Source: a candidate division WWE3 bacterium (lineage in GTDB: Bacteria > Patescibacteriota > WWE3 > UBA101185 > UBA10185). Taken from it: a DNA stretch of 64,000 bases. The stretch is taken from positions 622,428-686,427 of the forward strand of contig JBPOHV010000001.1 in assembly GCA_052035175.1 (NCBI GenBank). The letters run 5' to 3'. The position numbers and the translations under genes are program-made. The notes beneath the pieces are model-generated. The model was not told where the DNA came from. It searched no databases and worked only from the letters and a program-made list of their open reading frames with translations. The stretch's first letter is position 1. Every line of letters begins with the position of its first letter. This document shows, piece by piece, positions 1,658-44,362 of this stretch.

Positions 1658-2053
1658 ATGGATAACTGTATTTTTTGCAAAATAATAAAAGGTGAAATAC
1701 CAGCGTATAAAATTTGGGAAGACGCTCAATATATTGCGATATTAGATATTTTCCCATCTTCAAAAGGAATGACACTGGTAATACCAAAAGAACACCAGCC
1801 TAGTTATATAAAAGATCTTGATACACAAAGTTGGACAGATATGCTTAAAGCTCTAAAAGCAGTAGCAGAAATCTTGGATACAAAGTTACCTAATATAATA
1901 AGAACGAAGTTTGTTTTTGAAGGCTTGGATGTACCGCATCTACACGCAAAGCTAATACCTGAGTATCCAGAAACTTTGAAAAACCAACCACAGCCGCAAA
2001 AAGCTAGCGACGCAGAACTAGCGGAAGTAAAGAGATTACTAGACCTGGTCTGA
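1658..2053 (+). CDS. HIT-family (HINT-like) nucleotide hydrolase
   Basis: CIFCKIIKGEIPA N-terminus and a histidine-triad-like HLHAKLIP motif. The stop codon lies inside the palindromic repeat at 2042-2060. Confidence 0.7.
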   Translation: MDNCIFCKIIKGEIPAYKIWEDAQYIAILDIFPSSKGMTLVIPKEHQPSYIKDLDTQSWTDMLKALKAVAEILDTKLPNIIRTKFVFEGLDVPHLHAKLIPEYPETLKNQPQPQKASDAELAEVKRLLDLV

Positions 2054-2063
2054 CCTGGTCCTT
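2039..2063. repeat. tRNA-associated palindromic repeat (GACCTGGTC-T-GACCTGGTC)
   Basis: CTAGACCTGGTCTGACCTGGTCCTT. Same family as the copies at 11721, 27247, 28262 and 28593. Confidence 0.8.
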
Positions 2064-10675: not shown

Positions 10676-11197
10676 ATGATCAAAATTTACAACATTATTG
10701 CTATATTTGCGTTTATTTATATCTCTGCAATTACCAACAGTGAAAAGATATTTGCAGAACCCTTTGTCGATGAAAGTATAAAAATTGAAGATAAGATCGA
10801 GAGTAAACAAGTAAATAGAGCAGAATTAATAGATAAGTATCTAGATAAACATAAATCACCTGTGATGGGTAAAGGGGAATTCATAGTACAAACTGCTGAT
10901 AAATATAATCTGGACTATAAACTATTGGTAGCAATTTCTGGAATAGAATCTACTTTTTGCAAAAGAATTCCTTATCAGTCTTATAACTGCTGGGGGTGGG
11001 GGATATATGGCAATAACATGATTAAGTTCAACTCGTTTGAAGAAGGTTTTGAAAAAGTTGCGCAAGGGCTTAGCGAGCATTATGTAAGTAAAGGGCTAGA
11101 TACTCCTGAAAAGATTGGTAGAAAGTATAACCCTCCAAATCCTGTAAAGTGGGCTGCAGCTGTGAATAAATTTGCGAGTGATATTGAGAAAAACTAA
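10676..11197 (+). CDS. secreted paralogue with putative transglycosylase-like domain
   Basis: GIESTFCKRIPYQSYNCWGWGIYGNN. Shares the ES..C...N..GWG(I/V)(W/Y)G pattern with the upstream gene. Confidence 0.35.
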   Translation: MIKIYNIIAIFAFIYISAITNSEKIFAEPFVDESIKIEDKIESKQVNRAELIDKYLDKHKSPVMGKGEFIVQTADKYNLDYKLLVAISGIESTFCKRIPYQSYNCWGWGIYGNNMIKFNSFEEGFEKVAQGLSEHYVSKGLDTPEKIGRKYNPPNPVKWAAAVNKFASDIEKN

Positions 11198-11607
11198 CTT
11201 ATCAGAGATTCTGCAACTAATCTCGGCAATACATCATGTTTAAATATAGAGCCTATTTCAATATCTTCTGGAATATTCTTGCCAACCCATAAGGTAGATT
11301 CAACCTCATTACTGGGAATGAAATCTCCAACCCAAGACTTTACAACAAAGACTTGCATTGTGACAAAGAAGCCAGGTTTACCGGCTGCTTCTGCTCTAAA
11401 TGTACCAAACTCTTGTAAGTCTACCTCTGTAACAGCTATGTTTAACTCTTCCTTTAATTCGCGCACTAATGCTTGTTTAGCTGTTTCACCAGCTTCCAAC
11501 TTGCCTCCAGGAGAAACATAGACAGTTTTATTAAATGACTTTGTGAGTAATAATTTTTTATCTTTTATGATAATTCCAGCAGCTTTATGTATATCCACGT
11601 CTTGCAT
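11194..11607 (-). CDS. Nudix hydrolase
   Basis: Nudix box GGKLEAGETAKQALVRELKEELNI. Start is set at MQDVDIH because the longer listed ORF overlaps the tRNA. Confidence 0.7.
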   Translation of the reverse strand: MQDVDIHKAAGIIIKDKKLLLTKSFNKTVYVSPGGKLEAGETAKQALVRELKEELNIAVTEVDLQEFGTFRAEAAGKPGFFVTMQVFVVKSWVGDFIPSNEVESTLWVGKNIPEDIEIGSIFKHDVLPRLVAESLIS

Positions 11608-11615
11608 ATAGTTTA

Positions 11616-11699
11616 TGGTGGGCGAGAGAGGACTTGAACCTCCACCCCTTGCGGGACATGGTCCTAAGCCATGCGTGTATACCATTCCACCACTCGCCC
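11616..11699 (-). tRNA. tRNA-Leu(TAG)
   Basis: Reverse complement folds as a type II tRNA with anticodon loop CTTAGGA. Its 5' half is identical to tRNA-Leu(TAA) at 2106. CCA is encoded. Confidence 0.8.
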
Positions 11700-11720
11700 A
11701 AGTGGTTGTATTTTAACACA

Positions 11721-11743
11721 GAGACCAGGTCAGACCTGGTCTC
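11721..11743. repeat. tRNA-associated palindromic repeat (perfect palindrome GAGACCAGGTC-A-GACCTGGTCTC)
   Basis: Lies 22 nt upstream of the tRNA-Leu(TAG) 5' end, overlapping its inferred -35 region. Confidence 0.8.
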
Positions 11744-11767
11744 TAAATAACTGCTACAATATATGCA

Positions 11768-25306: not shown

Positions 25307-27250
25307 ATGAAAATACCTGTTGAATGGTTATCTGAATACATAAAAATAAATAAGACGCCAAAAGAACTAGCGCAAGACTTTACAGCGGTTGGATTGATGC
25401 TTGATAAGTATGATGAAAAAAACAGTGTACTCGATCTAGAACACCGCATGGATCGCTCTGATTGGCTTTCTATATTAGGGTGTGCTAGAGATTTGGCAGC
25501 ATATAACAAAACTGAACTAAGATATCCAAAAGCTTACTTAGCAGATTTACCAAAGATTCCTGAAAGTGAGCAAGTGCAAATAAATGTAGAAGGAACTGAT
25601 TTTGTTAATAGATTTTATACACGTATTTTCAAAAACATAAAAATACAAGATTCTCCAGATTGGCTGAAAAAGCGATTGGAAGCATATGGTTTACCTTCTA
25701 TAAATAATATTGTAGATATAACCAATTATGTAATGGTCGAATACGGACAACCAATGCACGCACACGACTTGGACAAAATGCAAACAAAAGAGATTACTTT
25801 CAGACACGCAAAACCTGGTGAAAAGATTGTAACCTTGCTAGGACAAGAGATAGAACTCGACTCTAATACTTGGATAACAACAAACAACAATTTACCTACA
25901 GGCGTAGCTGGAATTGTAGGTGGAAAACAAGTAGCAATAGATGCGACAACAAAAAATATTGTTTTGGATTCTGGAAATTATAATCAAACAACAATTAGGC
26001 ATACATCAAGAAACATTAAAATAACCAATGAAACTGTTTTGCGCACAGATAAGTTTTTGCACGCGCACAACAATGAACTTGCAATAAAAAGAGCAACTCA
26101 GCTCATACTAGAACTGGCAGGCGGGGACGCTTTTGAAAATTTCGACTATTATCCAACGAGGCAAGGCCTGACCAAGCAACAGCTTAGATATAGCAGACTA
26201 GTAAAAATTGGCGGTATGCATTTTTCAGACGCTGAAATTGAAGATATTTTAACGAGATTAGAATACAAAGTATTATCAAAAAAAGAAGCTGAAGATAATA
26301 CAAAGTTATGGGAACTCGAAGTACCTTATTTTAGAACAGACGTCCAAGTCGAAGACGACATTGTCGCAGATATATTGCGAATAAACGATTACAACAAAAT
26401 ACCAGCCGCATCGATAGACATGGCACCACCATCAGAGATAACACCTGCGGCATATAAATTTGAACAACTATTAAAAGATGAATTGGTAAAATTAGGTCTT
26501 GACGAACATATAACTGCCCCAATGATACCTATCGACAAACTTAACACCGAGCAAGTAACGATTTTGAGTAGCCTGAGCGCAGACAGACAAGGTCTGAGAA
26601 CAAATGTATATACTACGTTGAAAGCTGCTATCGACACTTATAAAAAGCACAATTTACATGAAATAGGGGTATTTGAAATAGGAAATACTTTTCACAAAAC
26701 TGGGAATGGTTCAAAACACGAAGACTATTTAGAAAAAAAGGAAGTAGAAATAATATACGAAAATACTCAGATGAACGTGAAAGAAAACTCAATCAAACTG
26801 AGACAAATTTTAGCAAGCTTATTAACTACTTTGGGAATCGCTAACTACTATCTAGAAAAAGAAGGTCAAAATGTGTGTATAAAATCACAAAGTCAAAATA
26901 CTTTGGGAATACTCACACATACGCACGCTACCTTGGCGATTGATACGTTGCTACTTGAGTATAAAAAACCAAGGTTAGCTATTTCTGAAATGCAAAACTT
27001 TACCAACTTTGATATTTCTTTGGTTATGAATCTAGAGCAACAATTTGGTGCGATATATAAATCTATTAAAGATTTTGATCAAAATATTGTTGATGTCGTT
27101 GTTGCTGAAGACTACATTGGTGCAAATGTCGAACAAGGCAAAAAAGCTGTGTTGGTTCAAATTACGCATAAATTAGCTGATACTTCAGAAGCACGAGTTA
27201 AGCTTTTGGAACATTTGGTTAAAACTTTTAATATTTCTCACCGCAGTTAA
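25307..27250 (+). CDS. pheT: phenylalanyl-tRNA synthetase beta subunit (short form)
   Basis: Its position after pheS, the B3/B4 and B5-like regions, and its length of 647 aa. Confidence 0.85.
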   Translation: MKIPVEWLSEYIKINKTPKELAQDFTAVGLMLDKYDEKNSVLDLEHRMDRSDWLSILGCARDLAAYNKTELRYPKAYLADLPKIPESEQVQINVEGTDFVNRFYTRIFKNIKIQDSPDWLKKRLEAYGLPSINNIVDITNYVMVEYGQPMHAHDLDKMQTKEITFRHAKPGEKIVTLLGQEIELDSNTWITTNNNLPTGVAGIVGGKQVAIDATTKNIVLDSGNYNQTTIRHTSRNIKITNETVLRTDKFLHAHNNELAIKRATQLILELAGGDAFENFDYYPTRQGLTKQQLRYSRLVKIGGMHFSDAEIEDILTRLEYKVLSKKEAEDNTKLWELEVPYFRTDVQVEDDIVADILRINDYNKIPAASIDMAPPSEITPAAYKFEQLLKDELVKLGLDEHITAPMIPIDKLNTEQVTILSSLSADRQGLRTNVYTTLKAAIDTYKKHNLHEIGVFEIGNTFHKTGNGSKHEDYLEKKEVEIIYENTQMNVKENSIKLRQILASLLTTLGIANYYLEKEGQNVCIKSQSQNTLGILTHTHATLAIDTLLLEYKKPRLAISEMQNFTNFDISLVMNLEQQFGAIYKSIKDFDQNIVDVVVAEDYIGANVEQGKKAVLVQITHKLADTSEARVKLLEHLVKTFNISHRS

Positions 27251-27273
27251 GGACCTGGTCAGACCTGGTCTAG
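27247..27273. repeat. 27-bp inverted-repeat end (left) TTAAGGACCTGGTCAGACCTGGTCTAG
   Basis: Perfect reverse complement of 28593-28619. It overlaps the pheT stop codon. Confidence 0.9.
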
Positions 27274-27377
27274 TGTTCATAAATATGTTATCGTCTCATC
27301 GTAGGTTTTGTGAGCAGCTAATCCCGCGGCCCGGGAAGTAGCTGTCTTAATCAACACAAGACCTGCAACACCAGATG

Positions 27378-27440
27378 GGAACAGTAGCTTCAAAGTGACG
27401 TTTGTCGCACCTCCCATCTGGTTTTTCTTTTTTTTGCACT
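27378..27440 (+). terminator. rho-independent terminator (likely end of the thrS-pheT operon)
   Basis: CCAGATGGGA ... TCCCATCTGG 10-bp stem followed by TTTTTCTTTTTTTTG. Confidence 0.55.
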
Positions 27441-27578
27441 TCCGAGACAATCATAGTAATATCCCAACAGCTAAAGCAGTGGCGAGATATGTGTAGGCGA
27501 AAGCCAGCAAGCCGCGAATCGCGGAACACTAATCTCCCTCTGCTTTAGCACACTCGTTTAAAGGTTAAACCTTCATAT

Positions 27579-27607
27579 TTGCTTATTTTAAAAGTTTTGT
27601 ATAGAAT
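27579..27607 (+). promoter_or_regulatory. putative sigma70 promoter for the tRNA-like gene at 27621
   Basis: TTGCTT, 17-nt spacer, TAGAAT. Confidence 0.4.
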
Positions 27608-27620
27608 GCACTCCATCGCC

Positions 27621-27692
27621 GGAGATGTAGCTCAATTGGGAGAGCACCGAGCTTTTGCTCGTAGGTTGCAGGTTCGAGTCCCGCCATTTCCA
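27621..27692 (+). tRNA. tRNA-like gene, anticodon region CTTTTG (Lys-TTT-like), apparent 6-nt anticodon loop, no encoded CCA
   Basis: Acceptor GGAGATG/CATTTCC pairs at all 7 positions with one G-U, and the D-arm GCTC-AATTGGGA-GAGC is canonical. The T-arm GCAGG-TTCGAGT-CCCGC has one mismatch. The anticodon stem CCGAG/CTCGT leaves only 6 loop nucleotides. Confidence 0.45.
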
Positions 27693-27960
27693 TTCGAGTG
27701 CACAACAGGTAGAACGTCTCCTATCATGTTGTGCGCTCGTGTAGGGCTGACAAGGTGATGCGCTCGCATCATTAACCTTGTCAGCCCTCCTCCAAATTCT
27801 TCACATACACCACTTACGTGATACTATTCAAACATTAAAATGTGCAAGCGGGAAACTATATGCACATACGGAGTGAAGCTTAGAAATGCTCGGTCAGGCA
27901 TCGGGGATTTTATTCTAGCTTCACTCCTTTGCTTTCTAAACACCCAACTTTAAGATTTGA

Positions 27961-27989
27961 TTGACCTATAGTTGTGGTGTTGTTATACT
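27961..27989 (+). promoter_or_regulatory. near-consensus sigma70 promoter
   Basis: TTGACC, 17-nt spacer, TATACT. Confidence 0.5.
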
Positions 27990-27996
27990 AGCGTTT

Positions 27997-28085
27997 GATA
28001 AACTGTGCCCAAGAAACTTGGACACAGTATCGTTGGGGCATTGCTTCGCCGCAAGGCACAGGAAAAGCAATGCCCCCATTTTCTT
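27997..28085 (+). ncRNA. candidate small RNA or structured tRNA leader
   Basis: Directly downstream of the consensus promoter. Ends in GGGGCATTGC...GCAATGCCCC (10-bp stem) followed by CATTTTCTTT, which abuts the tRNA at 28087. Confidence 0.3.
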
Positions 28086-28086
28086 T

Positions 28087-28160
28087 AGGGATGTGGCGCA
28101 ATTGGAAGACGCGTCGGACTTATAATCCGAATTTTGCGGGTTCGAAGCCCGTCATCCCTA
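28087..28160 (+). tRNA. candidate tRNA-Ile(TAT), no encoded CCA
   Basis: Acceptor AGGGATG/CATCCCT, anticodon stem TCGGA/TCCGA with loop CTTATAA, T-arm GCGGG-TTCGAAG-CCCGT. The D-arm is irregular (3-bp stem, 11-nt loop). Confidence 0.5.
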
Positions 28161-28261
28161 TATAGCCTACAAGAACAAACGTCTCTCTTGTAGACTTACT
28201 GGATGCATTTGGTGATAGCCTCCTTCTATCTTCTAATGCATCCAGTTTATTCAAATGTTAT

Positions 28262-28288
28262 TTAAGGACCTGGTCAGACCTGGTCTAA
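28262..28288. repeat. internal direct copy of the 27-bp repeat (TTAAGGACCTGGTCAGACCTGGTCTAA)
   Basis: 26 of 27 positions identical to the left end copy. Confidence 0.9.
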
Positions 28289-28400
28289 TATTTATAAATC
28301 CCACGTCTTAGGTTAATAGCTTATTTTTTTTAATAGATTGTTTTTTTAATGGACAAGTTTGCCTTTTGTTCGGGTACTTAGTATAATCCAAGACATAAAA

Positions 28401-28471
28401 GGCGGTATAGCTCAGCGGGAGAGCACCGGGCGACAACCCGGAAGTCCGTGGTCCGACTCCACGTGCCGCCA
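28401..28471 (+). tRNA. tRNA-like gene, anticodon region CGACAA, apparent 6-nt loop, unusual T-loop TCCGACT, no encoded CCA
   Basis: Acceptor GGCGGTA/TGCCGCC, D-arm GCTC-AGCGGGA-GAGC, anticodon stem CCGGG/CCCGG enclosing 6 nt, T-stem CGTGG/CCACG. Confidence 0.45.
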
Positions 28472-28592
28472 ATCCGGAGTATATTATGCGGTCGTAACCA
28501 ATCGTTCCGCTTATATACTCTAGAGTAGAGTGAACTAAGGGCCTTACCTAAGGCGTTCGCCTTTAGTTCACTCTAATTTTCTTTATTGGAAA

Positions 28593-28619
28593 CTAGACCA
28601 GGTCTGACCAGGTCCTTAA
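28593..28619. repeat. 27-bp inverted-repeat end (right), exact reverse complement of 27247-27273
   Basis: CTAGACCAGGTCTGACCAGGTCCTTAA. Abuts the PBP1A stop codon. Confidence 0.9.
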
Positions 28620-28620: not shown

Positions 28621-31293
28621 TTACTCCAGAACCCAGCCTTTAATATTTAAATCAACGCTATCTGAACCTTCGTTACCGTCATCGTCTTCGGCTTCTACTT
28701 TAAATGTGTGATTGCCCAATTGATTTTTATTAAACGTAAAGTTATAACCATACGGCGCTGACTTATCTGTTGCAACCTCATTACCATCCATATATATTTT
28801 GATACGCTCAATATCGTTGTATGCCGATATTTCAACATTAATTCTAAAATCTAGTGGAACGTCGTCACCATTTTCTACGCCTACAATAGAAACATTAACA
28901 TCATCTTTGTTTGAAACTTCGTTTCCGTCAAACTCTAACTTACTAACCATTTGAGGAGGGAAATATTTATCATCACCACTAAAGTTCTCTTTTAACCAAC
29001 TATCTACATAAGTCTGCCACAATGAAACTTCTGGTTTTATTTTGATAAATGTTTTGACTTCTGTTTCATCTGCATCTCTACATTCATTATTTGCTATACG
29101 ACCATCAATTTTGCATATTTCTATTTTTTGATACCAATCGCTCACCGAAGTAGGCTCGGTACCTTTTACAAACCATTCTTCGCGTGTGGCTTCCTCACCA
29201 GTAGGTAATCCACCTGTCAAACGGTCAACTTTGATCTTTTGTACATTTTCTGGAGATTCAAACTTTTCTTCTTCTTTATCTTTTAAATATTCAACAAAGA
29301 AATTATGCCAAATAGGTGTCGCACCAGTTATACCAGAAGAAATATACTGGTTTAAAGGCTCGTTGTTGTTGTTTCCAACCCAAGTACCAACGACAAGCGA
29401 AGGAGTATACCCAACAGCATAATTATCACGCTTATCATTGGTTGTACCTGTCTTAACTGCTACTTGATGACCAGGAATATTTAGTAAACTACTAGGACCA
29501 AACGCATCACTACGTGCGCCATTATCAGATAAAATATCTGAAATCAAAAAAGCAACACCATCGCTTAGTGCACGTTTGCCACCAGCGTCTGTCCACTTGT
29601 ACAAGGTATTACCAGATGAATCTTTTACTTCTAATATTGGCGTAGGTTCTCGATACATGCCTTTGGATGCAAAAACAGTATATGCACCAGTCAATTGAAG
29701 TAAAGACGTTTCTGCGCCACCAAGCGTAATTGCAAGCCCATAACGAGAACGATCGGTAAATGAAGTTATACCCATTTTTTCTGCTTGATCTATCATTGTA
29801 TCTACACCTACAATCTGCAAAGCTTTTACAGCAGGAATATTCAATGAATTAGCTAGTGATTTTCGTAATGACATCGGTCCCCTAAAAGTACCATCATAAT
29901 TTACAGGCTCATAAGGTTCATCAACTTTGGCGCCAGGAAATTTTGTAGGAACATCTAAAAATGGAAACGCTGATGTATAACCCTTTTCTAGCATTGTTGC
30001 ATACGTCACTGGTTTTATCGCAGAACCAGGCTGACGAAGCGAAGTAGCTACATTTACTTGCGGTTCAAATGTACAGCTATCTTCACCAGTTATACCAGAA
30101 ATGCAATCTGCTGGTTCTGAATTCAAGAAAAATCCTTTACTACCTACCATTGCAAGAACTTGCGAAGTTTTGGAGTCTAAGGCAACTAATGCACCGTTTC
30201 CTACATTATAATTCTTTTCTTTTTCAACTTGGTCAAAAACTATTTGCTGTGCTTTATTTTGTAAATCTAAATCTAGTGTGGTTGTTACTTGTAAACCAGC
30301 TTGATCTACATAATCTTCTCCAAACATATCGGCCAAAACACTTTTGACATAAAAGACGAAATGAGGAGCATTCAATGGAACATCGGCGTCTTGAAATGCC
30401 AATTGCTCGTTTTTTGCTGCTTCATAGTCTTCGGTACTCAAAAAGTATTTATTGCCATCTTCTCCTTGCCAACCGCGTTCGTGCATCAATTGCAAAACAT
30501 AGTTTTTGCGTGATACACCTGCTTCTGGCGTATTACCAAAATAAGAATACCGAGATGGACTTTGAGGTAAACCAGCAATATATGCTGCTTCGGCAATCGT
30601 AAGGTCTTTTGGTGATTTATTAAAATAAGATCGTGCAGCAGTAAAAACCCCATAATTTTGCCCACCGTATGGAGTCTCATTCAAATACATTTGTAGTATT
30701 TCATTTTTTGTATATCTGTTTTCTAATTGTAAAGAAAGTATAAGTTCTTTGGCTTTGCGTGTAATAGTTTGTTCTTGGCTCAAAAGGGTATTTTTTACAA
30801 CTTGCTGTGTAAGCGTAGACCCGCTTTGTAAACCTTCACCCAATGCTATGTTTTTGACTGCGCGCAACATGCCCAAAAGATAAAAACCTTGATGGCTATA
30901 AAAGTTTGCGTCTTCAGCAGCTAATGTAGCGTGTATCAAGTTTGGTGAAATATCTTCGAATTTGACTAAAGTTCTATTTTTATCGCCATAAAATTCGTAT
31001 AAGATTTTGCCATTGCGATCAAAAATCTTTGTCGAAAGCTCAAAACTGCGCTCCAACAATTCATTTGGATTGGGCAATTCATACGAAAAATATGCAAAAA
31101 CAGCAAAAATTAATGTGATTGCAAAAACTAGTCCAAATAAAGACATTTTGGCCAAAAACAAAGCAATTTTTAGCTTTTTAGTTTTGTCTGTAATAAATTT
31201 CTTTGGTATAAGTCTGCTGCTAATACTAGGAGACTTTGATGATTTGCTTGGTAAGGTTGCTTTAGTTTTCTGTTGCATACGATCATTATACAA
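28621..31293 (-). CDS. class A penicillin-binding protein 1A (transglycosylase/transpeptidase) with C-terminal extension
   Basis: N-terminal TM and GT51 motifs (EDANFYSHQG, GGSTLTQQ). Transpeptidase SxxK/KTG motifs (KTGTTND). Confidence 0.9.
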   Translation of the reverse strand: MYNDRMQQKTKATLPSKSSKSPSISSRLIPKKFITDKTKKLKIALFLAKMSLFGLVFAITLIFAVFAYFSYELPNPNELLERSFELSTKIFDRNGKILYEFYGDKNRTLVKFEDISPNLIHATLAAEDANFYSHQGFYLLGMLRAVKNIALGEGLQSGSTLTQQVVKNTLLSQEQTITRKAKELILSLQLENRYTKNEILQMYLNETPYGGQNYGVFTAARSYFNKSPKDLTIAEAAYIAGLPQSPSRYSYFGNTPEAGVSRKNYVLQLMHERGWQGEDGNKYFLSTEDYEAAKNEQLAFQDADVPLNAPHFVFYVKSVLADMFGEDYVDQAGLQVTTTLDLDLQNKAQQIVFDQVEKEKNYNVGNGALVALDSKTSQVLAMVGSKGFFLNSEPADCISGITGEDSCTFEPQVNVATSLRQPGSAIKPVTYATMLEKGYTSAFPFLDVPTKFPGAKVDEPYEPVNYDGTFRGPMSLRKSLANSLNIPAVKALQIVGVDTMIDQAEKMGITSFTDRSRYGLAITLGGAETSLLQLTGAYTVFASKGMYREPTPILEVKDSSGNTLYKWTDAGGKRALSDGVAFLISDILSDNGARSDAFGPSSLLNIPGHQVAVKTGTTNDKRDNYAVGYTPSLVVGTWVGNNNNEPLNQYISSGITGATPIWHNFFVEYLKDKEEEKFESPENVQKIKVDRLTGGLPTGEEATREEWFVKGTEPTSVSDWYQKIEICKIDGRIANNECRDADETEVKTFIKIKPEVSLWQTYVDSWLKENFSGDDKYFPPQMVSKLEFDGNEVSNKDDVNVSIVGVENGDDVPLDFRINVEISAYNDIERIKIYMDGNEVATDKSAPYGYNFTFNKNQLGNHTFKVEAEDDDGNEGSDSVDLNIKGWVLE

Positions 31294-34147: not shown

Positions 34148-34235
34148 AAATACACTTTTTGTAAAGTTTGTTTTGTGGGTGGGCCAAGAATATGCATAAA
34201 GCACGATTCTTGGCCCACGCCACGTCACCAGGGTT

Positions 34236-34385
34236 GGGTTAGGACTTTTTTTCTGGGTCCTTTTCCCCTGGTGACGTTGTTTCGCCATGCGCGCCTTTGG
34301 GGGCGAGCATGGCCATAACACCCAAGAAAAGCACGAATCCTCCTAATAGAAGGAGGACCGTACAAACGGGTTGGATAATATCCAT
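34236..34385 (-). CDS. 49-aa hydrophobic small peptide A (MDIIQPVCTVLLLLGGFVLFLGVMAMLAPKGAHG...)
   Basis: AAGGAGA SD about 4 nt upstream and a single TM helix. Lies in a GC-rich palindromic insert and is a paralogue of peptide B. Confidence 0.35.
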
Positions 34386-34594
34386 GGCTCTCCTTTGTCC
34401 CGCCGAAGCGGGACAAGATAAATATTTTTGATAGAAATAGTATAACCTATAGCTAGTTTTTTGTAAAATTGAAAGATTTAATCAATAAAGGATCAATGGC
34501 CAAGTGAGGTTTCGCAAAAAAATGCGACCTTCAAATGGCCATTTGAGTCAGGGGGGAACGATTTTGTTTATGTTTCTTGCAACATAAACAAATA

Positions 34595-34616
34595 GGAATA
34601 GTCCTAGGACTATTCC
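34595..34616. repeat. perfect 22-bp palindrome GGAATAGTCCTAGGACTATTCC
   Basis: Exactly self-complementary. Lies just downstream (minus-strand sense) of peptide B. Confidence 0.8.
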
Positions 34617-34647
34617 CAGCCCCCCACAGAAAAAAAACCGATGCCCA

Positions 34648-34788
34648 TTAGGACCTCCTTTTATCCTTGGGGGCAATATGAATGCTCCAATGAGCAAACA
34701 CCGCCCCCAAAGTGAGGCCGCCGAAGGCGGCCAAAAAAAAGATAACAGCGGCGAGTTGCTCGCCGAAGTTATTTGCCATGGTATCCAT
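34648..34788 (-). CDS. 46-aa hydrophobic small peptide B (MDTMANNFGEQLAAVIFFLAAFGGLTLGAVFAHWSIHIAPKDKRRS)
   Basis: Strong SD AAAGGAGG 4 nt upstream. TM helix with a GG motif and an APK motif shared with peptide A. Its stop overlaps a second SD-preceded 12-codon ORF (TAATG). Confidence 0.35.
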   Translation of the reverse strand: MDTMANNFGEQLAAVIFFLAAFGGLTLGAVFAHWSIHIAPKDKRRS

Positions 34789-34912
34789 GGCACCTCCTTT
34801 TCATAAATCACACGACCTAACGTGACTTATGAATTAGTGGAATTATTATTGATATTAGCATCGGGTACAGATGTATGGAAGGTCAGTCCTCGATGAGGAC
34901 TGACCTTCGGCT

Positions 34913-34939
34913 TGACTGACATAAGTCCTCATGTATAAT
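34913..34939 (+). promoter_or_regulatory. sigma70 promoter for rpmF (near-leaderless transcript)
   Basis: TTGACT, 15-nt spacer, extended -10 TGTATAAT. The ATG lies about 10 nt after the -10. Preceded by the perfect hairpin GAAGGTCAGTCCTC-GAT-GAGGACTGACCTTC. Confidence 0.5.
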
Positions 34940-34949
34940 GGGCTGCAGT

Positions 34950-35096
34950 ATGCCAGTACCAAAAAGAAAACATTCATTAGGAAGAGTCAGACGCAAAAGA
35001 CAAGAAAAAATGCGTAAGTCAGCTGTAATAGCAGTTCAAGACAAAAAAAGCGGAACTTACCATAGACCTCACGTAGAAGAAAAAGTTAAAATCTAA
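34950..35096 (+). CDS. rpmF: ribosomal protein L32
   Basis: [48 protein letters not shown] matches the bL32 pattern (MAVPKRKTS...HRV). Under 60 aa, so absent from the ORF track. Confidence 0.75.
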
Positions 35097-35822: not shown

Positions 35823-36527
35823 ATGGCAGTTGAGACTATGGCATTTAATTTTGATAAGATAAAAATCTTGCTTGAGATTGTATCAGACAATGAAACATTG
35901 TTTAAAACAGCCTTTACGCACAGATCTTATCTCAACGAGCACCCAGAATACACAAATCCCTCTAATGAAAGGCTAGAATTCTTGGGAGACGCAGTTTTGC
36001 AACTGCTTTCTTCTGAATACTTGTATGAAAAATACCCAAACTCACCAGAAGGAGAACTTACCAACTTTCGGGCTTCAATAGTATGTACACAATCTTTGGC
36101 GCAAGAAGCCAAAAGGTTAGGCTATGGCGCACATTTATTGCTTTCAAACGGTGAAGATGCAACTGGTGGTAGAGACAGAGAATATATATTGGCAAATACA
36201 TTTGAAGCCGTGTTGGGAGCTATTTTCTTAGAAAAAGGCATAGACACAGCAAAAGCATTTGTATCCAAAAACTTACTTTATAAGATTACAGAAATTGTAG
36301 ACAAAGAAAAATATAAAGACGCAAAATCGATGTTTCAAGAGAAAGCTCAAGAATTAAAAGGCCTTACCCCGCAGTATAAAGTTGTAGATTCTTGGGGATT
36401 AGACCACGAAAAAACCTTTAAAATCGGGGTTTACATAGGCGATGAGCTCTATGGCATGGGTGAAGGAACGAGCAAACAGAAAGCAGAACAACAAGCTGCA
36501 ATTACGGCCTTGGAAAAATTGAAGTAA
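35823..36527 (+). CDS. rnc: ribonuclease III
   Basis: ERLEFLGDAVL signature and a C-terminal dsRBD. Confidence 0.9.
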   Translation: MAVETMAFNFDKIKILLEIVSDNETLFKTAFTHRSYLNEHPEYTNPSNERLEFLGDAVLQLLSSEYLYEKYPNSPEGELTNFRASIVCTQSLAQEAKRLGYGAHLLLSNGEDATGGRDREYILANTFEAVLGAIFLEKGIDTAKAFVSKNLLYKITEIVDKEKYKDAKSMFQEKAQELKGLTPQYKVVDSWGLDHEKTFKIGVYIGDELYGMGEGTSKQKAEQQAAITALEKLK

Positions 36528-36890: not shown

Positions 36891-37127
36891 ATGATCGATT
36901 TCATAAAATATATATTTCAACAAATAGTCTCAAAACCCGAAGCAGTTGAAGTTGATGAACTACAAACGGAAGACGCTAACACTTATAGTGTTTCTCTAGA
37001 CAAAGACGATATTCCATTAGTTATAGGAAAACAAGGAAGAAATATAAAAAGTATCCGCAGTCTGGTTAAAGTAAAAGCCCTCAAACTGGGCTTGAACAAG
37101 CAAATCTATATAGATATAAAAGAATGA
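36891..37127 (+). CDS. KH-domain RNA-binding protein (YlqC-like)
   Basis: VIGKQGRNIKSIRSL GXXG loop. Sits in the conserved rpsP-KH-trmD context. Confidence 0.7.
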   Translation: MIDFIKYIFQQIVSKPEAVEVDELQTEDANTYSVSLDKDDIPLVIGKQGRNIKSIRSLVKVKALKLGLNKQIYIDIKE

Positions 37128-37786
37128 ACTTCCATATTCTTACACTTTTTCCGCATTTGATACAAACTCACTTTACTGAAAATCCATTTAAAAAAGCTCA
37201 ACAAATAAGTGCTGCAGAATATAAAACTTGGAATTTACGAGACTACGCGATCGATAAAAGAGGAACTGTAGACGACAAACCTTATAGTGGGGGAGTAGGA
37301 ATGATTTTACGTATAGAACCCATTTATAATGCTCTACGAGACATAAAAGCATCTATCGGGCCAGAAGCAAAGATAAAAGTTATATTACTTTCACCAAGAG
37401 GTAAAACTTTTGATCAAAAAAAAGCTATAGAACTTTCGAATGAAGACAACATTGTACTTATTTGTGGTAGATACGAAGGTATAGATGCACGAGTAGAACA
37501 ATATCTAGTAGATGAAACTATTTCTATAGGCGATTACGTATTAACTGGAGGTGAAGTACCCGCTTTGGCTGTAATGGAAGCTGTAACTAGATTATTACCA
37601 AATGTATTAGAAAAAGAAAATGCCACTACAAACGAATCTTTTTCTATAGATCAACTAGATCAAACTAAAAAAGAATACCCACAATATACGCGGCCAGAAG
37701 AATTTGACGGTATGAAAGTGCCAGAAGTACTTTTATCTGGAAACCACAAAGAAATAGAAGCCTGGAAAAAAGAAAATACAAAATAG
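37124..37786 (+). CDS. trmD: tRNA (guanine37-N1)-methyltransferase
   Basis: ILTLFPHL...YSGGVGMILRIEPI...LICGRYEGIDARV. Confidence 0.9.
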   Translation: MNFHILTLFPHLIQTHFTENPFKKAQQISAAEYKTWNLRDYAIDKRGTVDDKPYSGGVGMILRIEPIYNALRDIKASIGPEAKIKVILLSPRGKTFDQKKAIELSNEDNIVLICGRYEGIDARVEQYLVDETISIGDYVLTGGEVPALAVMEAVTRLLPNVLEKENATTNESFSIDQLDQTKKEYPQYTRPEEFDGMKVPEVLLSGNHKEIEAWKKENTK

Positions 37787-37796: not shown

Positions 37797-38597
37797 TTAT
37801 ATTTCTGGAGTTTCTTCTGTATCTTCGGTAGCTGGAACAGGTAAAGCATTTATATCTTCTTGAGTAATCTCATAATATTTCAATGACTTTACTGCATTCA
37901 TTACGTTTACAAAATCTGGGCTAGCTATATCCAAATTTATTGGGTCATCTGTGACCGCAGCAGATTGTATACTGATATAAGGAGATGCTAAAGAAAAGCT
38001 AACTGTCAGTCCAAAGCCTCCAGACTGAGTTTCACCATTCATAAATCTAAAATTTGACACATTTATCATGCGCGAAGCATTTTCTAGAGTCTTTAAAAAT
38101 AAGACTAACTGATCGTAAGTACCTTCTGCACCCATAGATAACGCTACTGTTTTTGATTGAGTGCTGTCACTCGTAGAAACATCGTAAGAATAGCTCAATC
38201 TTGTAAGTTTGAGGCCAGATTCAGCTGCAATTTTGTTTACTTGAGTCGACAATTGCAAAACTTGAGCCTCTGATAAAAGAACTTTATCGACTAATGAAGA
38301 ATTTTCACTTACAACTGCTTGAAAATCGACTAATTTATTTAGTGTAGAAAGCTTTGTAGCCAAAACATCTCGCAAATTTTGATTGGTTTGAAGCTCTGCC
38401 CTTATATTTGGTAAATCATTTATTGCAGGATAAATCACAAGCAAAAATAACAAAACCGAACCGCTCAAACAAAGTAAAGGCGTCAAAAAGTTTATAAACA
38501 ACTCTTTCAACGAATCCTTATCTACACCAACACTAGACTTTGGCATATCGTTTGCAGGAGTGTTATTGATATTTGGAAATATACTATTTAGCTGCAT
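37797..38597 (-). CDS. pilO: type IV pilus assembly protein PilO-like
   Basis: Single N-terminal TM plus coiled coil. Located downstream of the pilM and pilN homologues. Confidence 0.5.
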   Translation of the reverse strand: MQLNSIFPNINNTPANDMPKSSVGVDKDSLKELFINFLTPLLCLSGSVLLFLLVIYPAINDLPNIRAELQTNQNLRDVLATKLSTLNKLVDFQAVVSENSSLVDKVLLSEAQVLQLSTQVNKIAAESGLKLTRLSYSYDVSTSDSTQSKTVALSMGAEGTYDQLVLFLKTLENASRMINVSNFRFMNGETQSGGFGLTVSFSLASPYISIQSAAVTDDPINLDIASPDFVNVMNAVKSLKYYEITQEDINALPVPATEDTEETPEI

Positions 38598-39150
38598 ATG
38601 GCTTTGTGAGCTTCTCGGCTGAATAATTTACTACTATAAAATAACTGACTTTTCCGCTGTTGATATCGAGGTTAACTGTATTTATATTTGCAGAAGTAAA
38701 TATTTCTGAAACTAATAAATTATCTATAAATTTTGAAATATCCAAATATGTGTCTCCTATACCAGATATACTTACCGAACCATCTAGGCCGAATGCAAAT
38801 TCATCGATTGCTACTGTAGAAGGGACTCGTGTAGCCAAATCTTCTAAAAGAAGAGAATAGTACTGGCGTGTAGAAAACATATCTTTTAAAATACTAACTT
38901 TTGCACCTAGGTTACGAGCAGTTATTTCTATTTGTGCCATTTCAGATATTTTTGTACGAGAAGACTCGATTTCAGTTTTGGTCGCTGCTACTTCTTTTTT
39001 CAAATTTGACGTAGTAAACATATAATAACCGCTAATACCCAAAGTAATAAGTAAAACTATTGCTGAAATTACTGTACTAAAATGAACAAAAAAGATTTTT
39101 CTCCTTTGTTGTATCTCTTGATCGGTTAATAAGTTTATTCCTTGTCCCAT
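38584..39150 (-). CDS. pilN: type IV pilus assembly protein PilN-like
   Basis: Short cytoplasmic N-terminus, TM and periplasmic domain. Overlaps its neighbours. Confidence 0.5.
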   Translation of the reverse strand: MGQGINLLTDQEIQQRRKIFFVHFSTVISAIVLLITLGISGYYMFTTSNLKKEVAATKTEIESSRTKISEMAQIEITARNLGAKVSILKDMFSTRQYYSLLLEDLATRVPSTVAIDEFAFGLDGSVSISGIGDTYLDISKFIDNLLVSEIFTSANINTVNLDINSGKVSYFIVVNYSAEKLTKPYAAK

Positions 39151-39151
39151 A

Positions 39152-40180
39152 TTATAAGCCTCTCATTGCCAAACCAACGGCCACAGCGTATTCGGGGCCA
39201 TGTTCTTTGAGATAGTCTTGCTGTTTGCTCAATCTTTGAGAAATTTCGACATTTACCCAAGGGTTTGCCAACGAAACCTCAGCATCAAATGTATTTGCCA
39301 TGTATAAAATTAGTCCGGGCATAAGAGCAGTGCCACCACACAATACTACTCGTTTAATCGTAGCACCTGGATACTGCGTTGTGAAGAACATCATGCTTCG
39401 GTTAATTTCTAAAACTAGCGTTTCAAACATAGGCCTTAGAGCTTCATAAACTTTGCCGTCGACATAAGACTTATCTAAACCATAAACTTTTTTGTATTCT
39501 TCTGCTTTTAGTTGGTCCAGCTCTAGGCCTTGCTGTATAGCTTTTGTAAAATCATCTCCACCCATTGAAATACTTCTAGTGAATCTAACTATGCCACCAT
39601 AAGTTACGACTAGGTAAGTACTAAACCTCCCAATATTCAAAATTAGTGTAGGGACTTTGTCGTCTTCAGAATCACCAAACAATCTAGCAACAGCCAAAGT
39701 TTCTGGTTCGAGTGCATCGGGTATCAAATGCGCACTTCTTAACAGTTGTTCATAGCGCTCTGACACATTGTTTTTGGTTGCAACTAGTTGAACGCTGATA
39801 GCTTCTTTTGTTGATTCACTGTCAATTTCTTGCCAAGAAATACGCATATCTTTGGCTGGAAATGGTAAATATTGCTCTGCATGATACATAACAGAGTTTT
39901 TGAGGTCTTTACCTGTTATCTTTGGCATTTTAACAATACGCATAAAAATATTGCGTTCTTCTAAACCCCCAATAATATGAGGGGTTGAGAATCCGATTTC
40001 TGAAAAGAAATTGTGCAATGCATCTGAATATACTTGTAAGTCATCCATATCTTCGTGATCAAAGTTTAATTTTGGGTTTTCATAGGCTCCAAAATTCTTG
40101 AGCAAAACACCTTTTTTTGTTTTTTCGAGTTCTACGGCTCTGAAACTATATTTACCTAAATCTAAACCAATTATGGACAT
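39152..40180 (-). CDS. pilM: type IV pilus assembly ATPase-like protein PilM
   Basis: Actin-like fold motifs (IIGLDLGKYSFRAVEL ... LCGGTALMPGL). Confidence 0.75.
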   Translation of the reverse strand: MSIIGLDLGKYSFRAVELEKTKKGVLLKNFGAYENPKLNFDHEDMDDLQVYSDALHNFFSEIGFSTPHIIGGLEERNIFMRIVKMPKITGKDLKNSVMYHAEQYLPFPAKDMRISWQEIDSESTKEAISVQLVATKNNVSERYEQLLRSAHLIPDALEPETLAVARLFGDSEDDKVPTLILNIGRFSTYLVVTYGGIVRFTRSISMGGDDFTKAIQQGLELDQLKAEEYKKVYGLDKSYVDGKVYEALRPMFETLVLEINRSMMFFTTQYPGATIKRVVLCGGTALMPGLILYMANTFDAEVSLANPWVNVEISQRLSKQQDYLKEHGPEYAVAVGLAMRGL

Positions 40181-40201
40181 AATTTATTATACAAGCTTCA
40201 A

Positions 40202-40987
40202 CTAATCATTTGACAAGTCATCTGTATTTGAAAATTGATACAACGCATAATCAAATATTTCTGGTAATGATGTATAAGTCTTGAGCACACTAACAGTTTT
40301 CGAAACATTTTTAGTTGTACCAGTTGCAGTTATAACGATACCCTGAGATGGTAGTGAATGTCCAGCTTGTGGAATTACAAATGCTTCTACATCTTTATAA
40401 ACTGATTTGAGTCGCAAAACTTGTGGCGTAGTTGCAGTCGGTATTGTATAGCAATTTGAATACCCACCAGACGCCGTTGCTAGCTCAAAACCATTGAATG
40501 GATCATGCGGTTGTACCGCATTGACGGCATATACATTGGCCTTATATGTTGTACCTGTTTTATATATGTACGATGCATAAATAGACGCTCCAGAATCTTG
40601 CCAACACACATTTATATTTGTACCAGCATATGAACTCAAACTTATTTCAGTAATTTTTGTGGTTAGTAGATCTACAGTATGCGGATCTGTAGAATTGCCA
40701 TCAAAACTTAAAGCAATAGAAACATCTGAAGTCACGCCATCGTCTCCGGTAATAGTATAAAAACAATTCGACCCACAATTATTACCATTTATATAGCCAG
40801 ATAAAGTAGCATTTGGTATTAAAAGTGTTTTTTCAGCACCAGACTCAGCTGCAGCCAATGACCGGGATGCAAAATCTACAGAAACAGAATTATGAAGATT
40901 TTTTACAAAGCGCATAGACAAGCTTATACCAGCCGCCAAAGCAATAATCATAAGCATTATAACTGATACTAAAACCTGACCTTTCAT
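40202..40987 (-). CDS. PilX-like pilus-associated protein (paralogue of 45155-46063)
   Basis: N-terminal hydrophobic segment IIALAAGISLS without a G/FTLIE site. Shares a ...SRV/LAAAE(A/S)G... region with 45155-46063. Confidence 0.4.
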   Translation of the reverse strand: MKGQVLVSVIMLMIIALAAGISLSMRFVKNLHNSVSVDFASRSLAAAESGAEKTLLIPNATLSGYINGNNCGSNCFYTITGDDGVTSDVSIALSFDGNSTDPHTVDLLTTKITEISLSSYAGTNINVCWQDSGASIYASYIYKTGTTYKANVYAVNAVQPHDPFNGFELATASGGYSNCYTIPTATTPQVLRLKSVYKDVEAFVIPQAGHSLPSQGIVITATGTTKNVSKTVSVLKTYTSLPEIFDYALYQFSNTDDLSND

Positions 40988-41005
40988 GTTTATTAATTCA
41001 AATTC

Positions 41006-41593
41006 TTAATAAGTATTCCGAATGACTATAGTATTCTTAGAAATAACTTGAGCTGAAAAATTTATACCCGTTACTGTAGTTGGTTGTGCAAACACAAGAC
41101 TATAACTAAAAATTTGTGGTGAAGTACCAGTCACTGTAAAACAGCTCCCGCTGCAGGCTACTGCAACACCTCCCGATACATTTTTTGTAAGACCCTCGTA
41201 TGTACCTGCAACCAAGCAATTTGCAGTATTTAACCGTTGAAGCTCGTTACTTTGGACTCGGTAAAAAGAACAACTACCATCAGAAAATCTTACAATTGCG
41301 ACATTACTCAAAACCGAGACATTTGTTGCTTTGCGTAATTCTTTCTCTAACTTTTGTGTGGCAAAATTGGCGCTTTGTTCCACATCACTTAAGATTTGTG
41401 TTTTACCATAACTACGAGTCAAAGATAATAAAATATCGGTAGTTAAACCTACAGTTATACCGAGCAAAGCAATAACAAGTAACAATTCAATAAGGGTGAA
41501 GCCCGCAAGCTTTTCATTTTGAGTAGACAAAGTTGAAGTCTTATCATCATGAAGATACTTTTGTGAAAATAGCTTCATTACTGACCCCTCCAA
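41006..41593 (-). CDS. type IV prepilin-like minor pilin
   Basis: Prepilin signal KLAGFTLIELLLVIALLGI (G/FTLIE). Confidence 0.6.
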   Translation of the reverse strand: MEGSVMKLFSQKYLHDDKTSTLSTQNEKLAGFTLIELLLVIALLGITVGLTTDILLSLTRSYGKTQILSDVEQSANFATQKLEKELRKATNVSVLSNVAIVRFSDGSCSFYRVQSNELQRLNTANCLVAGTYEGLTKNVSGGVAVACSGSCFTVTGTSPQIFSYSLVFAQPTTVTGINFSAQVISKNTIVIRNTY

Positions 41594-42081
41594 TTGGTAA
41601 GGTCGGTATAAACATTTGTACTTATAGTTCTACCTCCTATTGGCCACGACGCACTAGCTCTAACACGGACTGTTTGATCTGTTGATACTAAAACCCCACC
41701 ATTTACATTTGTAGCTCTAAAAAAATATGTCACAGTACTCAAACCAGTACCAGTTGTACCGTTGCCTACAGTTACTGTAGGTAATCCGCTACCCGTAGGC
41801 TCTGTCATATAACAACCAGTGGAACACGGAGTAACAGCAGAAATGAAAGTAGCCCAATTTGCAGTAATATCACGCAAAGCTCTGACCAGTTCTATTTGTT
41901 TGTTTGCAGTTTTTGTACCTTCCAAATAAAGTTTACTTTGTAATGATGAACGCAAAGAAAAGACTGATAAAGAAACCAATGATGTAATAACAATCACAGC
42001 TACACCGACTGCCGCGATTACTTCGACCAAACCTATACCAAGACTATGCTTAGTTACATGCGATACTTGCGCTGCTGACAT
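41578..42081 (-). CDS. divergent prepilin-like protein
   Basis: KHSLG/IGLVEVIAAVGVAV with Glu at +5. Start trimmed to the internal Met to avoid a 98-nt overlap. Confidence 0.45.
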   Translation of the reverse strand: MSAAQVSHVTKHSLGIGLVEVIAAVGVAVIVITSLVSLSVFSLRSSLQSKLYLEGTKTANKQIELVRALRDITANWATFISAVTPCSTGCYMTEPTGSGLPTVTVGNGTTGTGLSTVTYFFRATNVNGGVLVSTDQTVRVRASASWPIGGRTISTNVYTDLTNWRGQ

Positions 42082-42622
42082 CGATAAGCCCTCCTTGGTA
42101 AATTTGTAACCTTCTACAATTTGTACTGGCGCCTTGCTTACCCACAATTATATTCAAAGGAAATGAAGCTGCAGTGTTTGTACTTGTACTACCATCAGAA
42201 TAAGAAAAAAATACACACATAGAAACTCGCGACACAAGTCCACCAGGCAATGCGCGGCTCGTACCTTTACTCAAAACATCTGTGGTAGGAGGGCAATCAG
42301 CTGCTTTTGAAGATATAAAATAACTGTAAGTTGTAGCATTTTGTATAAACCGAACACCCCAATAAGAAGGGAGAATATTAGCGCTTACTTGATCCAAAGA
42401 ATTTTCTCCAGTAAGAGCCTTGTTTTGTAATGAACGTAAATCTGATCGTATTTGGTCACGTGCTTGATTCACATTTTGGTTTGCAATATAAGTTGAAAAA
42501 CCCGGGATCATTGATCCGGTAATGATTATAATTATTGAAACAACCAACAATAATTCAATTAGAGTAAAACCTACATTTTTAAGCTGGGCAGATAACATAA
42601 TTATATTTATTATACATTGCAA
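42050..42622 (-). CDS. type IV prepilin-like minor pilin
   Basis: KNVGFTLIELLLVVSII. Confidence 0.6.
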   Translation of the reverse strand: MQCIINIIMLSAQLKNVGFTLIELLLVVSIIIIITGSMIPGFSTYIANQNVNQARDQIRSDLRSLQNKALTGENSLDQVSANILPSYWGVRFIQNATTYSYFISSKAADCPPTTDVLSKGTSRALPGGLVSRVSMCVFFSYSDGSTSTNTAASFPLNIIVGKQGASTNCRRLQIYQGGLIDVSSASIACN

Positions 42623-42627
42623 TCCAC

Positions 42628-43158
42628 TTACAAAATAGTCAAATCTGATCCTATTTCATACAAATCTAGATCATTCCCAGAATCTGATGTTTCATAATCT
42701 ATAAAAGCTTCCATATTTACATTGAGTTCAAATCCAACATCTGTGTGTCGATAAATATATAAATGCAGTTCGTCATTCAACGGGTCAATCGGTAATTTAA
42801 CAATATATGGTGATAAATCTTGAGCTATCCAACCGGTACTAGAACTCACCAACGGACCAGCCTGACCAGAAGGTAAAGTATTACTCAAATATGTTGTATT
42901 TGAAACACCAGGGTATGCATAATTGTCTAAAGAATATTCACTGATAGCACGTTCTAGAGTCGACAAGTCTGATAAACGTTTTTCATCACGGGTTTTGCCA
43001 TGATAAGCATTTGATGTAATTAAAGTAGAGTAAGTTGTAATTAATATACCGACAACTAAAATAACCACTAAAGCTTCGATAAGTGTAAAACCTGAAGGGT
43101 CTTTGGCTTGACGAGAATAAAAGACTTTAAGGGTTTTCTGTACCATAACAATAATCAC
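42628..43158 (-). CDS. type IV prepilin-like minor pilin
   Basis: DPSGFTLIEALVVILVVGIL. Confidence 0.6.
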   Translation of the reverse strand: MIIVMVQKTLKVFYSRQAKDPSGFTLIEALVVILVVGILITTYSTLITSNAYHGKTRDEKRLSDLSTLERAISEYSLDNYAYPGVSNTTYLSNTLPSGQAGPLVSSSTGWIAQDLSPYIVKLPIDPLNDELHLYIYRHTDVGFELNVNMEAFIDYETSDSGNDLDLYEIGSDLTIL

Positions 43159-43705: not shown

Positions 43706-43709
43706 ATAT

Positions 43710-44267: not shown

Positions 44268-44362
44268 AGAAACTATTCATTTAAATTTTTCATTTTCATG
44301 CCCCCCGCGATCGCGGGGGGCATAAAAGAAGTTAACATACTTAAGTCTATTAACTAAAAATA

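Follow-up and report, generated by a model that had tools for sequence, protein, structure and literature searches.

Supernumerary tRNA genes that are disseminated horizontally are found in the cyanobacterial L-array or trn operon, in which three of the 26 genes of Anabaena are pseudogenes (PMC8421152). The present work concerns an island of three tRNA-type genes in a candidate division WWE3 bacterium, which lies within a 64-kb stretch of contig JBPOHV010000001.1 (assembly GCA_052035175.1, positions 622,428 to 686,427; called the window below and numbered from its first letter). The island fills a protein-free block of ~1.37 kb between the stop codons of the convergent genes pheT and PBP1A, and copies of a 27-bp repeat bound it in inverted orientation. 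Like the L-array, it holds extra tRNA genes that differ from the housekeeping set, some of them apparently non-functional, at a lineage-specific site. It departs from the L-array in having only three genes with promoters and terminators of their own instead of one operon in which some 20 or more genes follow each other closely, and also in the 6-nt anticodon loops of two of these genes, their long structured trailers, the dispersed repeat at the borders and a host from the candidate phyla radiation (CPR). The reading that we prefer, tentatively and at somewhat less than an even chance, is a lineage-specific insertion of three autonomous tRNA-type units that is flanked by a dyad element, probably protein-bound, rather than by a transposon end.

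Short dispersed repeats provide a second comparison. In common with miniature inverted-repeat transposable elements (MITEs), repetitive extragenic palindromes (REP), their paired form REPIN and Correia elements, the island repeat is short, GC-rich and partly palindromic, is located at gene ends where it overlaps or supplies stop codons, and occurs both singly and as inverted pairs. Nevertheless, it consists of a tandem pair of 9-bp palindromes with a period of 10 bp, invariant half-sites and flipping centres, it is also present in tRNA promoter regions, the DNA that it encloses is unique, and no transposase, including the REP-associated tyrosine transposase (RAYT), was seen in the 64 kb. MetJ met-boxes and ribbon-helix-helix operators are built of adjacent short palindromic boxes about one helical turn apart, on which dimers bind cooperatively to one face of the DNA. 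The double 9-mer of the island has a like spacing but an unrelated sequence, and it is a putative site to which no cognate protein has been assigned.

tRNA-like structures serve as processing handles in the TMERs of murine gammaherpesvirus 68 (MHV68), where viral tRNA-like sequences are joined to pre-microRNA hairpins, in MALAT1-mascRNA and in mitochondrial tRNA punctuation. Two of the island genes share with TMERs and mascRNA, in architecture alone, a tRNA shape that is predicted not to decode, the lack of an encoded CCA and one or two stable hairpins that follow directly. Those systems are eukaryotic, viral or organellar, whereas the island is known from its sequence; to our knowledge, microRNA machinery is absent from bacteria.

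A derived island between pheT and PBP1A

The gene order thrS-infC-rpmI-rplT-pheS-pheT, followed by convergent PBP1A on the minus strand and by recG, is kept in six of six relatives. The 3' ends of pheT and PBP1A overlap tail to tail by 14 nt in two of them (L088 and L089) and by 4 nt in two others (L095 and L096), while a single ORF separates the genes in L086 (182 aa) and in a JGI contig (sample 3300072015; 170 aa). No tRNA gene was found in the loci of 11-22 kb fetched from these six relatives. Since the two genes either overlap or hold one small ORF, without tRNA, in all of them, the 1.37-kb non-coding block is derived in the window lineage, that is, it is an insertion. The empty site that the original prediction had proposed to look for is thus present in all six of these distant relatives, in which the genes overlap or nearly abut. 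The closest other pheT proteins, from Patescibacteria and WWE3-type bins, are only 46-50% identical, so the window appears to represent a poorly sampled CPR lineage; no DNA-level relatives of it were found in the collections searched.

Both flanking proteins are full length, the pheT product having 647 aa as in the relative P0018 and PBP1A 890 aa compared with 834-899 aa in relatives. The ORF coordinates confirm that the left 27-mer contains the pheT stop codon and that the right one abuts the stop codon of PBP1A, and the earlier claim that no protein gene lies between the repeats holds as well. No credible ORF was found in the island: the sole Shine-Dalgarno-led candidate of at least 20 aa (GGAG, 4 nt, GTG, 60 aa, overlapping hairpins) is weak and unconvincing. 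Over 14,148 nt that take in the island, a Logan assembly of SRR34217543 shows 0 mismatches to the window, an agreement that is not fully independent because this assembly possibly derives from the same reads as the NCBI contig.

Rfam searches (the segment 26500-29500 at E values up to 1, the whole window at the gathering threshold) returned only tRNA and neither a group I intron nor a riboswitch nor any small RNA already known. The explanation by a group I intron, as in Patescibacteria (PMC13011429), is inapplicable since the genes are contiguous. No second copy of the internal sequence of the island was present in the 64-kb window or in metagenome, viral, phage or plasmid collections.

Three tRNA-type units and their hairpins

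The three tRNA-type genes, called by ARAGORN and by Rfam with Infernal (gathering score 29 bits), are spaced 209-393 nt apart (Table 1). A canonical 7-nt anticodon loop with U33 is found only in the middle one, tRNA-Ile(UAU). The loops of the first (tRNA-Asn-like, TL1) and of the third (tRNA-Val(GAC)-like, TL3) have 6 nt according to both programs and, because of this, TL1 and TL3 should be unable to act as normal decoders. Both retain the acceptor, D and T arms and, as read from the sequence, the tertiary bases U8, A14, G18-G19, G53 and C56 through A58, and a cloverleaf is predicted for TL3 in its sequence context. A sequencing or assembly error behind the short loops is unlikely, given that the second assembly is identical and that restoring the consensus loops (CUGUUAA for Asn, CUGACAA for Val) exceeds a homopolymer change. 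No relevant literature on 6-nt anticodon loops was found.

Among the 679 Ile codons of 19 window genes, ATA is the most frequent (295), so a decoder of AUA is clearly needed in this genome, and tRNA-Ile(UAU) is probably a working one. In Mycoplasma mobile, a tRNA-Ile(UAU) decodes AUA without lysidine (PMC3575796). The island likewise carries a tRNA-Ile(UAU) gene in an AT-rich, reduced and AUA-heavy genome. Codon usage in the 19 genes is strongly A-ending (AAA 561 versus AAG 129) with TAA as the main stop, and no recoding of UGA is evident because TGA serves as the stop in three of them.

The original prediction had set three tRNA-like genes without CCA against five canonical, CCA-encoding tRNAs elsewhere in the window and had drawn from this a separate origin. 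This contrast holds: CCA is encoded in none of the three island genes and in all five others. Moreover, folding energies of the 130-nt 3' flanks range from -41 to -61 kcal/mol for the island genes as against -12 to -16 kcal/mol for the host tRNAs, and TL3 is not copied from the host tRNA-Val(GAC) at 15991. Because they lack CCA, have long structured trailers and include a TL3 that is no copy of the host gene, the island tRNAs have the appearance of foreign genes beside the host set, which is in favour of a separate origin. The nearest matches of TL1 are phage and archaeal-virus tRNA-Asn genes (88.5% identity for the archaeal-virus gene) and those of TL3 are phage tRNA-Val genes. The anticodon arms of TL1 and TL3 gave no matches in viral collections. 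A metagenome scan with the TL1 arm and T-arm gave two matches, which were dismissed as chance hits in high-GC DNA without tRNA.

Promoter-like sites were scored out of 12. Two sites of 10/12 bear out the consensus promoters claimed for the island, and a third one before TL1, at 8/12, lies below the scan threshold and was read from the sequence. Folding revealed 12 stable hairpins, where at least six long ones had been noticed before, with energies of -8.5 to -41.6 kcal/mol and segment z-scores of -5.8 to -9.4 against shuffles; the fold of the TL1 trailer reaches z = -9.35. The first trailer hairpin begins 2-3 nt past the discriminator base and a U-tailed hairpin stands at the end of each unit. 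H2 with its U-run is a probable intrinsic terminator of pheT, Hc a probable terminator of the TL1 unit, and Hh and Hi with their tail a probable terminator of the TL3 unit. The leader formed by Hd and He in front of tRNA-Ile(UAU) may act as an attenuator or be a small RNA of its own.

Three shared segments were set aside as being at chance level for 1.4 kb or, in the last case, at about chance level: AACGTCTC, common to the loops of Ha (27713-27720) and Hf (28177-28184), the 9-mer TCGTAGGTT, of which one copy lies at 27299 and another at 27659, and a 12-nt complementarity between the loop of the pheT terminator (27394-27405) and that of Hf (28175-28186). The genes for RNase III (35823-36527) and for TrmD, the tRNA m1G37 methyltransferase (37124-37786), are located 7-9 kb from the island; that RNase III could cut the 14-19-bp stems of the island is only a thought.

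The double palindrome and its solitary copies

The 27-mer TTAAGGACCTGGTCAGACCTGGTCTAG did not occur in 100 dinucleotide-preserving shuffles of the window. A repeat search recovered the three copies on which the original prediction was built, namely R1, its exact reverse complement R3 and the direct copy R2 with one mismatch. Terminal inverted repeats are present, R1 and R3 being complementary at 27 of 27 positions (33 nt at 94%) and R2 and R3 over 31 nt at 97%. The core of the repeat is made of two 9-bp palindromes GACCWGGTC with one base between them and a 10-bp period (search pattern GACCWGGTCWGACCWGGTC). GACCWGGTC occurs 10 times in the window, always within double units at five places and never single, while the chance expectation for a single one is 0.11. 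Two of the five places, upstream of tRNA-Leu genes, had not been part of the earlier reading.

All five copies are situated at gene ends or in promoter regions. Their half-site positions are invariant (16/16) and the variation is confined to the centre W and to the outer flanks, the centres being TT, TT, TT, AA and AT in a common orientation. The A or T of the centre flips independently of the flanks. In addition, the centres would be mismatched in four of the five copies if these were folded as hairpins, and such hairpins are weak (-7.6 to -9.7 kcal/mol). For these two reasons, recognition as double-stranded DNA, presumably by a symmetric oligomeric protein, is favoured over the copying of a mobile end. 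Identities as an ECF-type (extracytoplasmic function) sigma promoter, a CtsR box, parS or a DNA uptake sequence were dropped since the spacing or the sequence does not match and the 9-mer is never single. No relevant literature on the 9-mer was found.

The two solitary copies belong to two tRNA-Leu blocks (2039-2771 and 11194-11746) of the same composition, in which the double GACCWGGTC is followed by an extended -10 promoter, a tRNA-Leu and a NUDIX-like ORF. This ORF, starting ATGCAAGA, begins 13-17 nt after each tRNA-Leu, and the two products are NUDIX-like paralogues with 40% identity over 53 aa (E = 5e-6). The loci look like an old block (segmental) duplication. In their DNA alignment the motif is kept at 18 of 19 positions and about 12 nt past it are still similar, while the remaining spacer contains a 21-nt indel. 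The conservation of the motif beside a diverged spacer appears to be the signature of a selected cis-element and not of a free mobile end. At tRNA-Leu(UAG), the copy overlaps the extended -10 promoter TGTTAAAAT between positions of about -38 and -20.

The three island copies resemble each other over 27-38 nt, more than they resemble the tRNA-Leu copies, and the island was therefore probably built using the double 9-mer element or has recently duplicated it. Each of the three island copies carries TTAA at its outer end, which makes a target-site duplication inseparable from the repeat itself. The suggestion that TTAA is a target-site signature is not borne out in general, as it flanks only the island copies and is absent from both solitary ones. 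No match to the repeat was found in metagenome and viral collections. A scan of genome contigs with the 19-mer core, in a collection that does not contain the source genome, gave 84 matches, all of them in genomes of high GC content and none below 45% GC, which were discarded as chance coding matches.

Table 1. Window coordinates of the genes, repeats, promoter-like sites and hairpins of the locus
Feature	Position	Strand	Details
pheT	25307..27250	+	ORF; Pfam B3_4, B5, tRNA_synthFbeta; TAA at 27248-27250 inside R1
PBP1A	28621..31293	-	Pfam Transgly, Transpeptidase; stop codon 1 nt outside R3
TL1, tRNA-Asn-like	27621..27692	+	55.2 bits; 6-nt anticodon loop CUUUUG, versus CUGUUAC; no encoded CCA
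tRNA-Ile(UAU)	28086..28161	+	59.7 bits; 7-nt anticodon loop; A1-U72 pair; discriminator A73; no encoded CCA
TL3, tRNA-Val(GAC)-like	28401..28471	+	53.6 bits; 6-nt loop CGACAA without U33; C55; no encoded CCA
Repeat R1	27247..27273	+	exact 27-mer; core GACCTGGTC-A-GACCTGGTC; weak RNA hairpin, -9.7 kcal/mol
Repeat R2	28262..28288	+	direct copy of R1, 1 mismatch; similarity reaching 38 nt
Repeat R3	28593..28619	-	exact reverse complement of R1
Solitary double 9-mer	2042..2060		overlaps stop codon of HIT-domain gene; 46 nt upstream of tRNA-Leu(UAA)
Solitary double 9-mer	11723..11741		25-bp perfect palindrome; 24 nt upstream of tRNA-Leu(UAG), which is on the minus strand
Promoter-like TTGCTT-17-TAGAAT	27579..27607	+	8/12; ends 13 nt before TL1
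Promoter-like TTGACC-17-TATACT	27961..27989	+	10/12; TG before second hexamer
Promoter-like TTGCCT-17-TATAAT	28359..28387	+	10/12; ends 13 nt before TL3
Hairpin H1	27296..27366	+	pheT 3' region; -30.9 kcal/mol
Hairpin H2 with U-run TTTTTCTTTTTTTT	27367..27437	+	-24.5 kcal/mol; inverted repeat
Branched hairpin H3	27468..27551	+	upstream of TL1; -41.6 kcal/mol; inverted repeat
Hairpins Ha, Hb	27695..27788	+	Ha 27695-27740, -27.0 kcal/mol; Hb 27743-27788, -31.8 kcal/mol; start 2 nt after TL1
Hairpin Hc with U-rich tail	27866..27937	+	terminator-like sub-hairpin at 27889-27905
Leader hairpins Hd, He, then U-rich CATTTTCTTT	28001..28085	+	-13.7 and -24.7 kcal/mol; between promoter and tRNA-Ile(UAU)
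Hairpins Hf, Hg	28164..28246	+	after tRNA-Ile(UAU); -8.5 and -22.9 kcal/mol; inverted repeat
Hairpins Hh, Hi with tail AATTTTCTTTATT	28473..28590	+	-17.3 and -26.0 kcal/mol; inverted repeat

Explanations for the island and their meaning

In the preferred reading, non-coding RNA genes, probably acquired horizontally, would have entered between pheT and PBP1A, whose 3' ends abutted in the ancestor. Each unit would comprise its own sigma-70-type promoter, a tRNA-shaped gene without CCA and a trailer of two or three long hairpins, of which the last is terminator-like. tRNA-Ile(UAU) would be a decoder under selection, and TL1 and TL3, with their acceptor, D and T arms, would be expected to fold in such a way that RNase P and RNase Z cleave them. 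These two may be non-decoding tRNA-like RNAs whose cloverleaf acts as a 5' and 3' processing handle for the hairpin trailers, or else recently disabled passengers of an acquired cluster. RNase Z cleavage requires the absence of an encoded CCA; it is because the missing CCA suits this enzyme and the first hairpin follows the discriminator base so closely that the first option is entertained. Intact cloverleaves, good promoters and an excess of stable hairpins favour function of TL1 and TL3, whereas stem mismatches and low scores favour their decay. The repeats, for their part, would be copies of a dispersed host dyad element with two GACCWGGTC palindromes one helical turn apart, most likely a site for an oligomeric DNA-binding protein tied to the tRNA-type units and serving in regulation, as a boundary or as a roadblock. 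A bolder version, which we regard as doubtful, is that TL1 and TL3 are deliberately non-decoding handles that release hairpin small RNAs, or are aminoacyl carriers or decoys, and that the double GACCWGGTC is recognised by a DNA-binding or recombination protein dedicated to marking and moving the tRNA-type modules of this CPR lineage.

Several points speak against the preferred reading. The stretch examined is 64 kb of a ~925-kb genome, no candidate protein that binds the double 9-mer was identified, and the genome, metagenome, viral, phage and plasmid collections yielded no homologue of the island RNAs or of the repeat beyond generic tRNA similarity. TL1 has the stem mismatches C27-U43 and A51-C63, TL3 has C55 and the two have the lowest scores among the eight tRNAs, defects that fit decay as well as new function. 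The near-identity of the island repeats, including TTAA and the inner flanks, is the pattern expected of recent duplication or mobility. Finally, the association with tRNA genes (P ~0.012 for two random non-coding sites both lying within 46 nt of a canonical tRNA) is weakened because both tRNA-Leu copies come from one block duplication and are not independent.

The rival that survives best, although we still consider it rather unlikely, is a decaying cluster of horizontally acquired tRNA genes (Asn, Ile-UAU and Val), in which only tRNA-Ile(UAU) is selected, TL1 and TL3 are pseudogenes and the hairpins are terminators or stabilisers that were carried in. It would account for the low scores and the mismatches or C55 just mentioned, and it agrees with the presence of a host tRNA-Val(GAC), with the recent event that the near-identity of the repeats suggests and with the known horizontal spread of supernumerary tRNA arrays that include some pseudogenes (PMC8421152). 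Nevertheless, the defects are single-nucleotide shortenings of the loops in cloverleaves that are otherwise intact and that have good promoters, and 12 hairpins far exceed the needs of termination. Moreover, a streamlined genome of ~0.9 Mb would be expected, from what is generally known of CPR genomes, to purge 1 kb of dead DNA.

The mobile cassette or MITE-like element of the original prediction, in which the 27-mers are terminal inverted repeats and either the 1.37-kb unit or the 358-bp segment 28262-28619 transposed with its tRNA genes into TTAA, seems improbable to us. One part of it stands, as the insertion, the perfect 27-bp inverted repeats and the empty site in six relatives are all found, together with TTAA at both outer ends and repeats that supply or abut stop codons, as those of MITEs often do. 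TTAA would also fit YTAR, which we take to be the 4-bp target of IS5-type elements. The mobility itself finds less support. The internal sequence does not recur in the window or in the collections searched, and neither a scan of ~40 window ORFs nor the precomputed annotations for the other genes revealed a domain of a transposase, integrase, recombinase or RAYT/Y1 type. In addition, the solitary copies of the core, without TTAA, hold conserved promoter-proximal positions in the duplicated tRNA-Leu blocks, and the centre W changes between A and T without regard to the flanks. A module for site-specific recombination, with excision of TL1 and tRNA-Ile(UAU) between R1 and R2 or inversion between R2 and R3 or R1 and R3 for phase-variable RNA expression, is very unlikely in spite of direct and inverted copies that bracket promoter-containing segments of 306-1307 bp and of a 25-bp perfect palindrome at 11723 that resembles invertase or resolvase sites, given the same lack of a recombinase domain, the single orientation in two assemblies and strong terminators that would make the logic of an invertible promoter pointless.

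Other features were observed elsewhere in the window. At 34150-34950, between a Cons_hypoth95 methyltransferase gene (likely rsmD) and an L32 gene (likely rpmF), a structured and GC-richer stretch contains, by eye, two or three tiny minus-strand ORFs for hydrophobic peptides of ~46-48 aa, each with a GGAGG site and strong hairpins after it; in the relative L086, a minus-strand ORF of 90 aa occupies the matching position. Two tandem paralogous genes at 60217-61661 encode small proteins that lack a Pfam match and whose hydrophobic N-termini are likely signal peptides; each gene is followed by a near-identical hairpin of ~55 nt, AAAAAAGACCTYGTCGAGCCGATAGCRATATCGCATGACGAGGTCTTTTGCG, at about 60886-60940 and 61612-61666, and a Logan short-read contig terminates at this pair. 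In the region 6697-6847, a perfect 13-bp hairpin (6697-6724) and a strongly structured leader of ~110 nt (-39.7 kcal/mol per 120 nt) lie upstream of tRNA-Pro(UGG); such a leader is absent from the other canonical window tRNAs, and Rfam gave no match. Finally, a type IV pilus region (37797-57373) holds PilM/N/O, at least five N_methyl pilin-like genes, a prepilin peptidase and PilB/T/C-type genes as well as a 1061-aa protein without Pfam match and a histidine kinase gene.

The observation on the island is real and better than chance, and the region, whose host is unusual, brings together the accessory tRNA cluster and the short dispersed palindromic element, both of them kinds that are already known. 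If TL1 and TL3 are pseudogenes, it would be an ordinary and tidy remnant of horizontal tRNA acquisition. Yet CPR or Patescibacteria genomes are extremely compact, and a highly structured, protein-free insert of 1.37 kb that carries strong promoters is probably not idle. If the RNAs with 6-nt loops are expressed, they would be a natural example, in a bacterium, of the tRNA shape serving a purpose other than decoding, and if tRNA-Ile(UAU) is the sole decoder of AUA, an inserted gene would be essential for ~3% of all codons. In parallel, the double-palindrome element may give access to the regulation or delimitation of tRNA genes in a little-known lineage.

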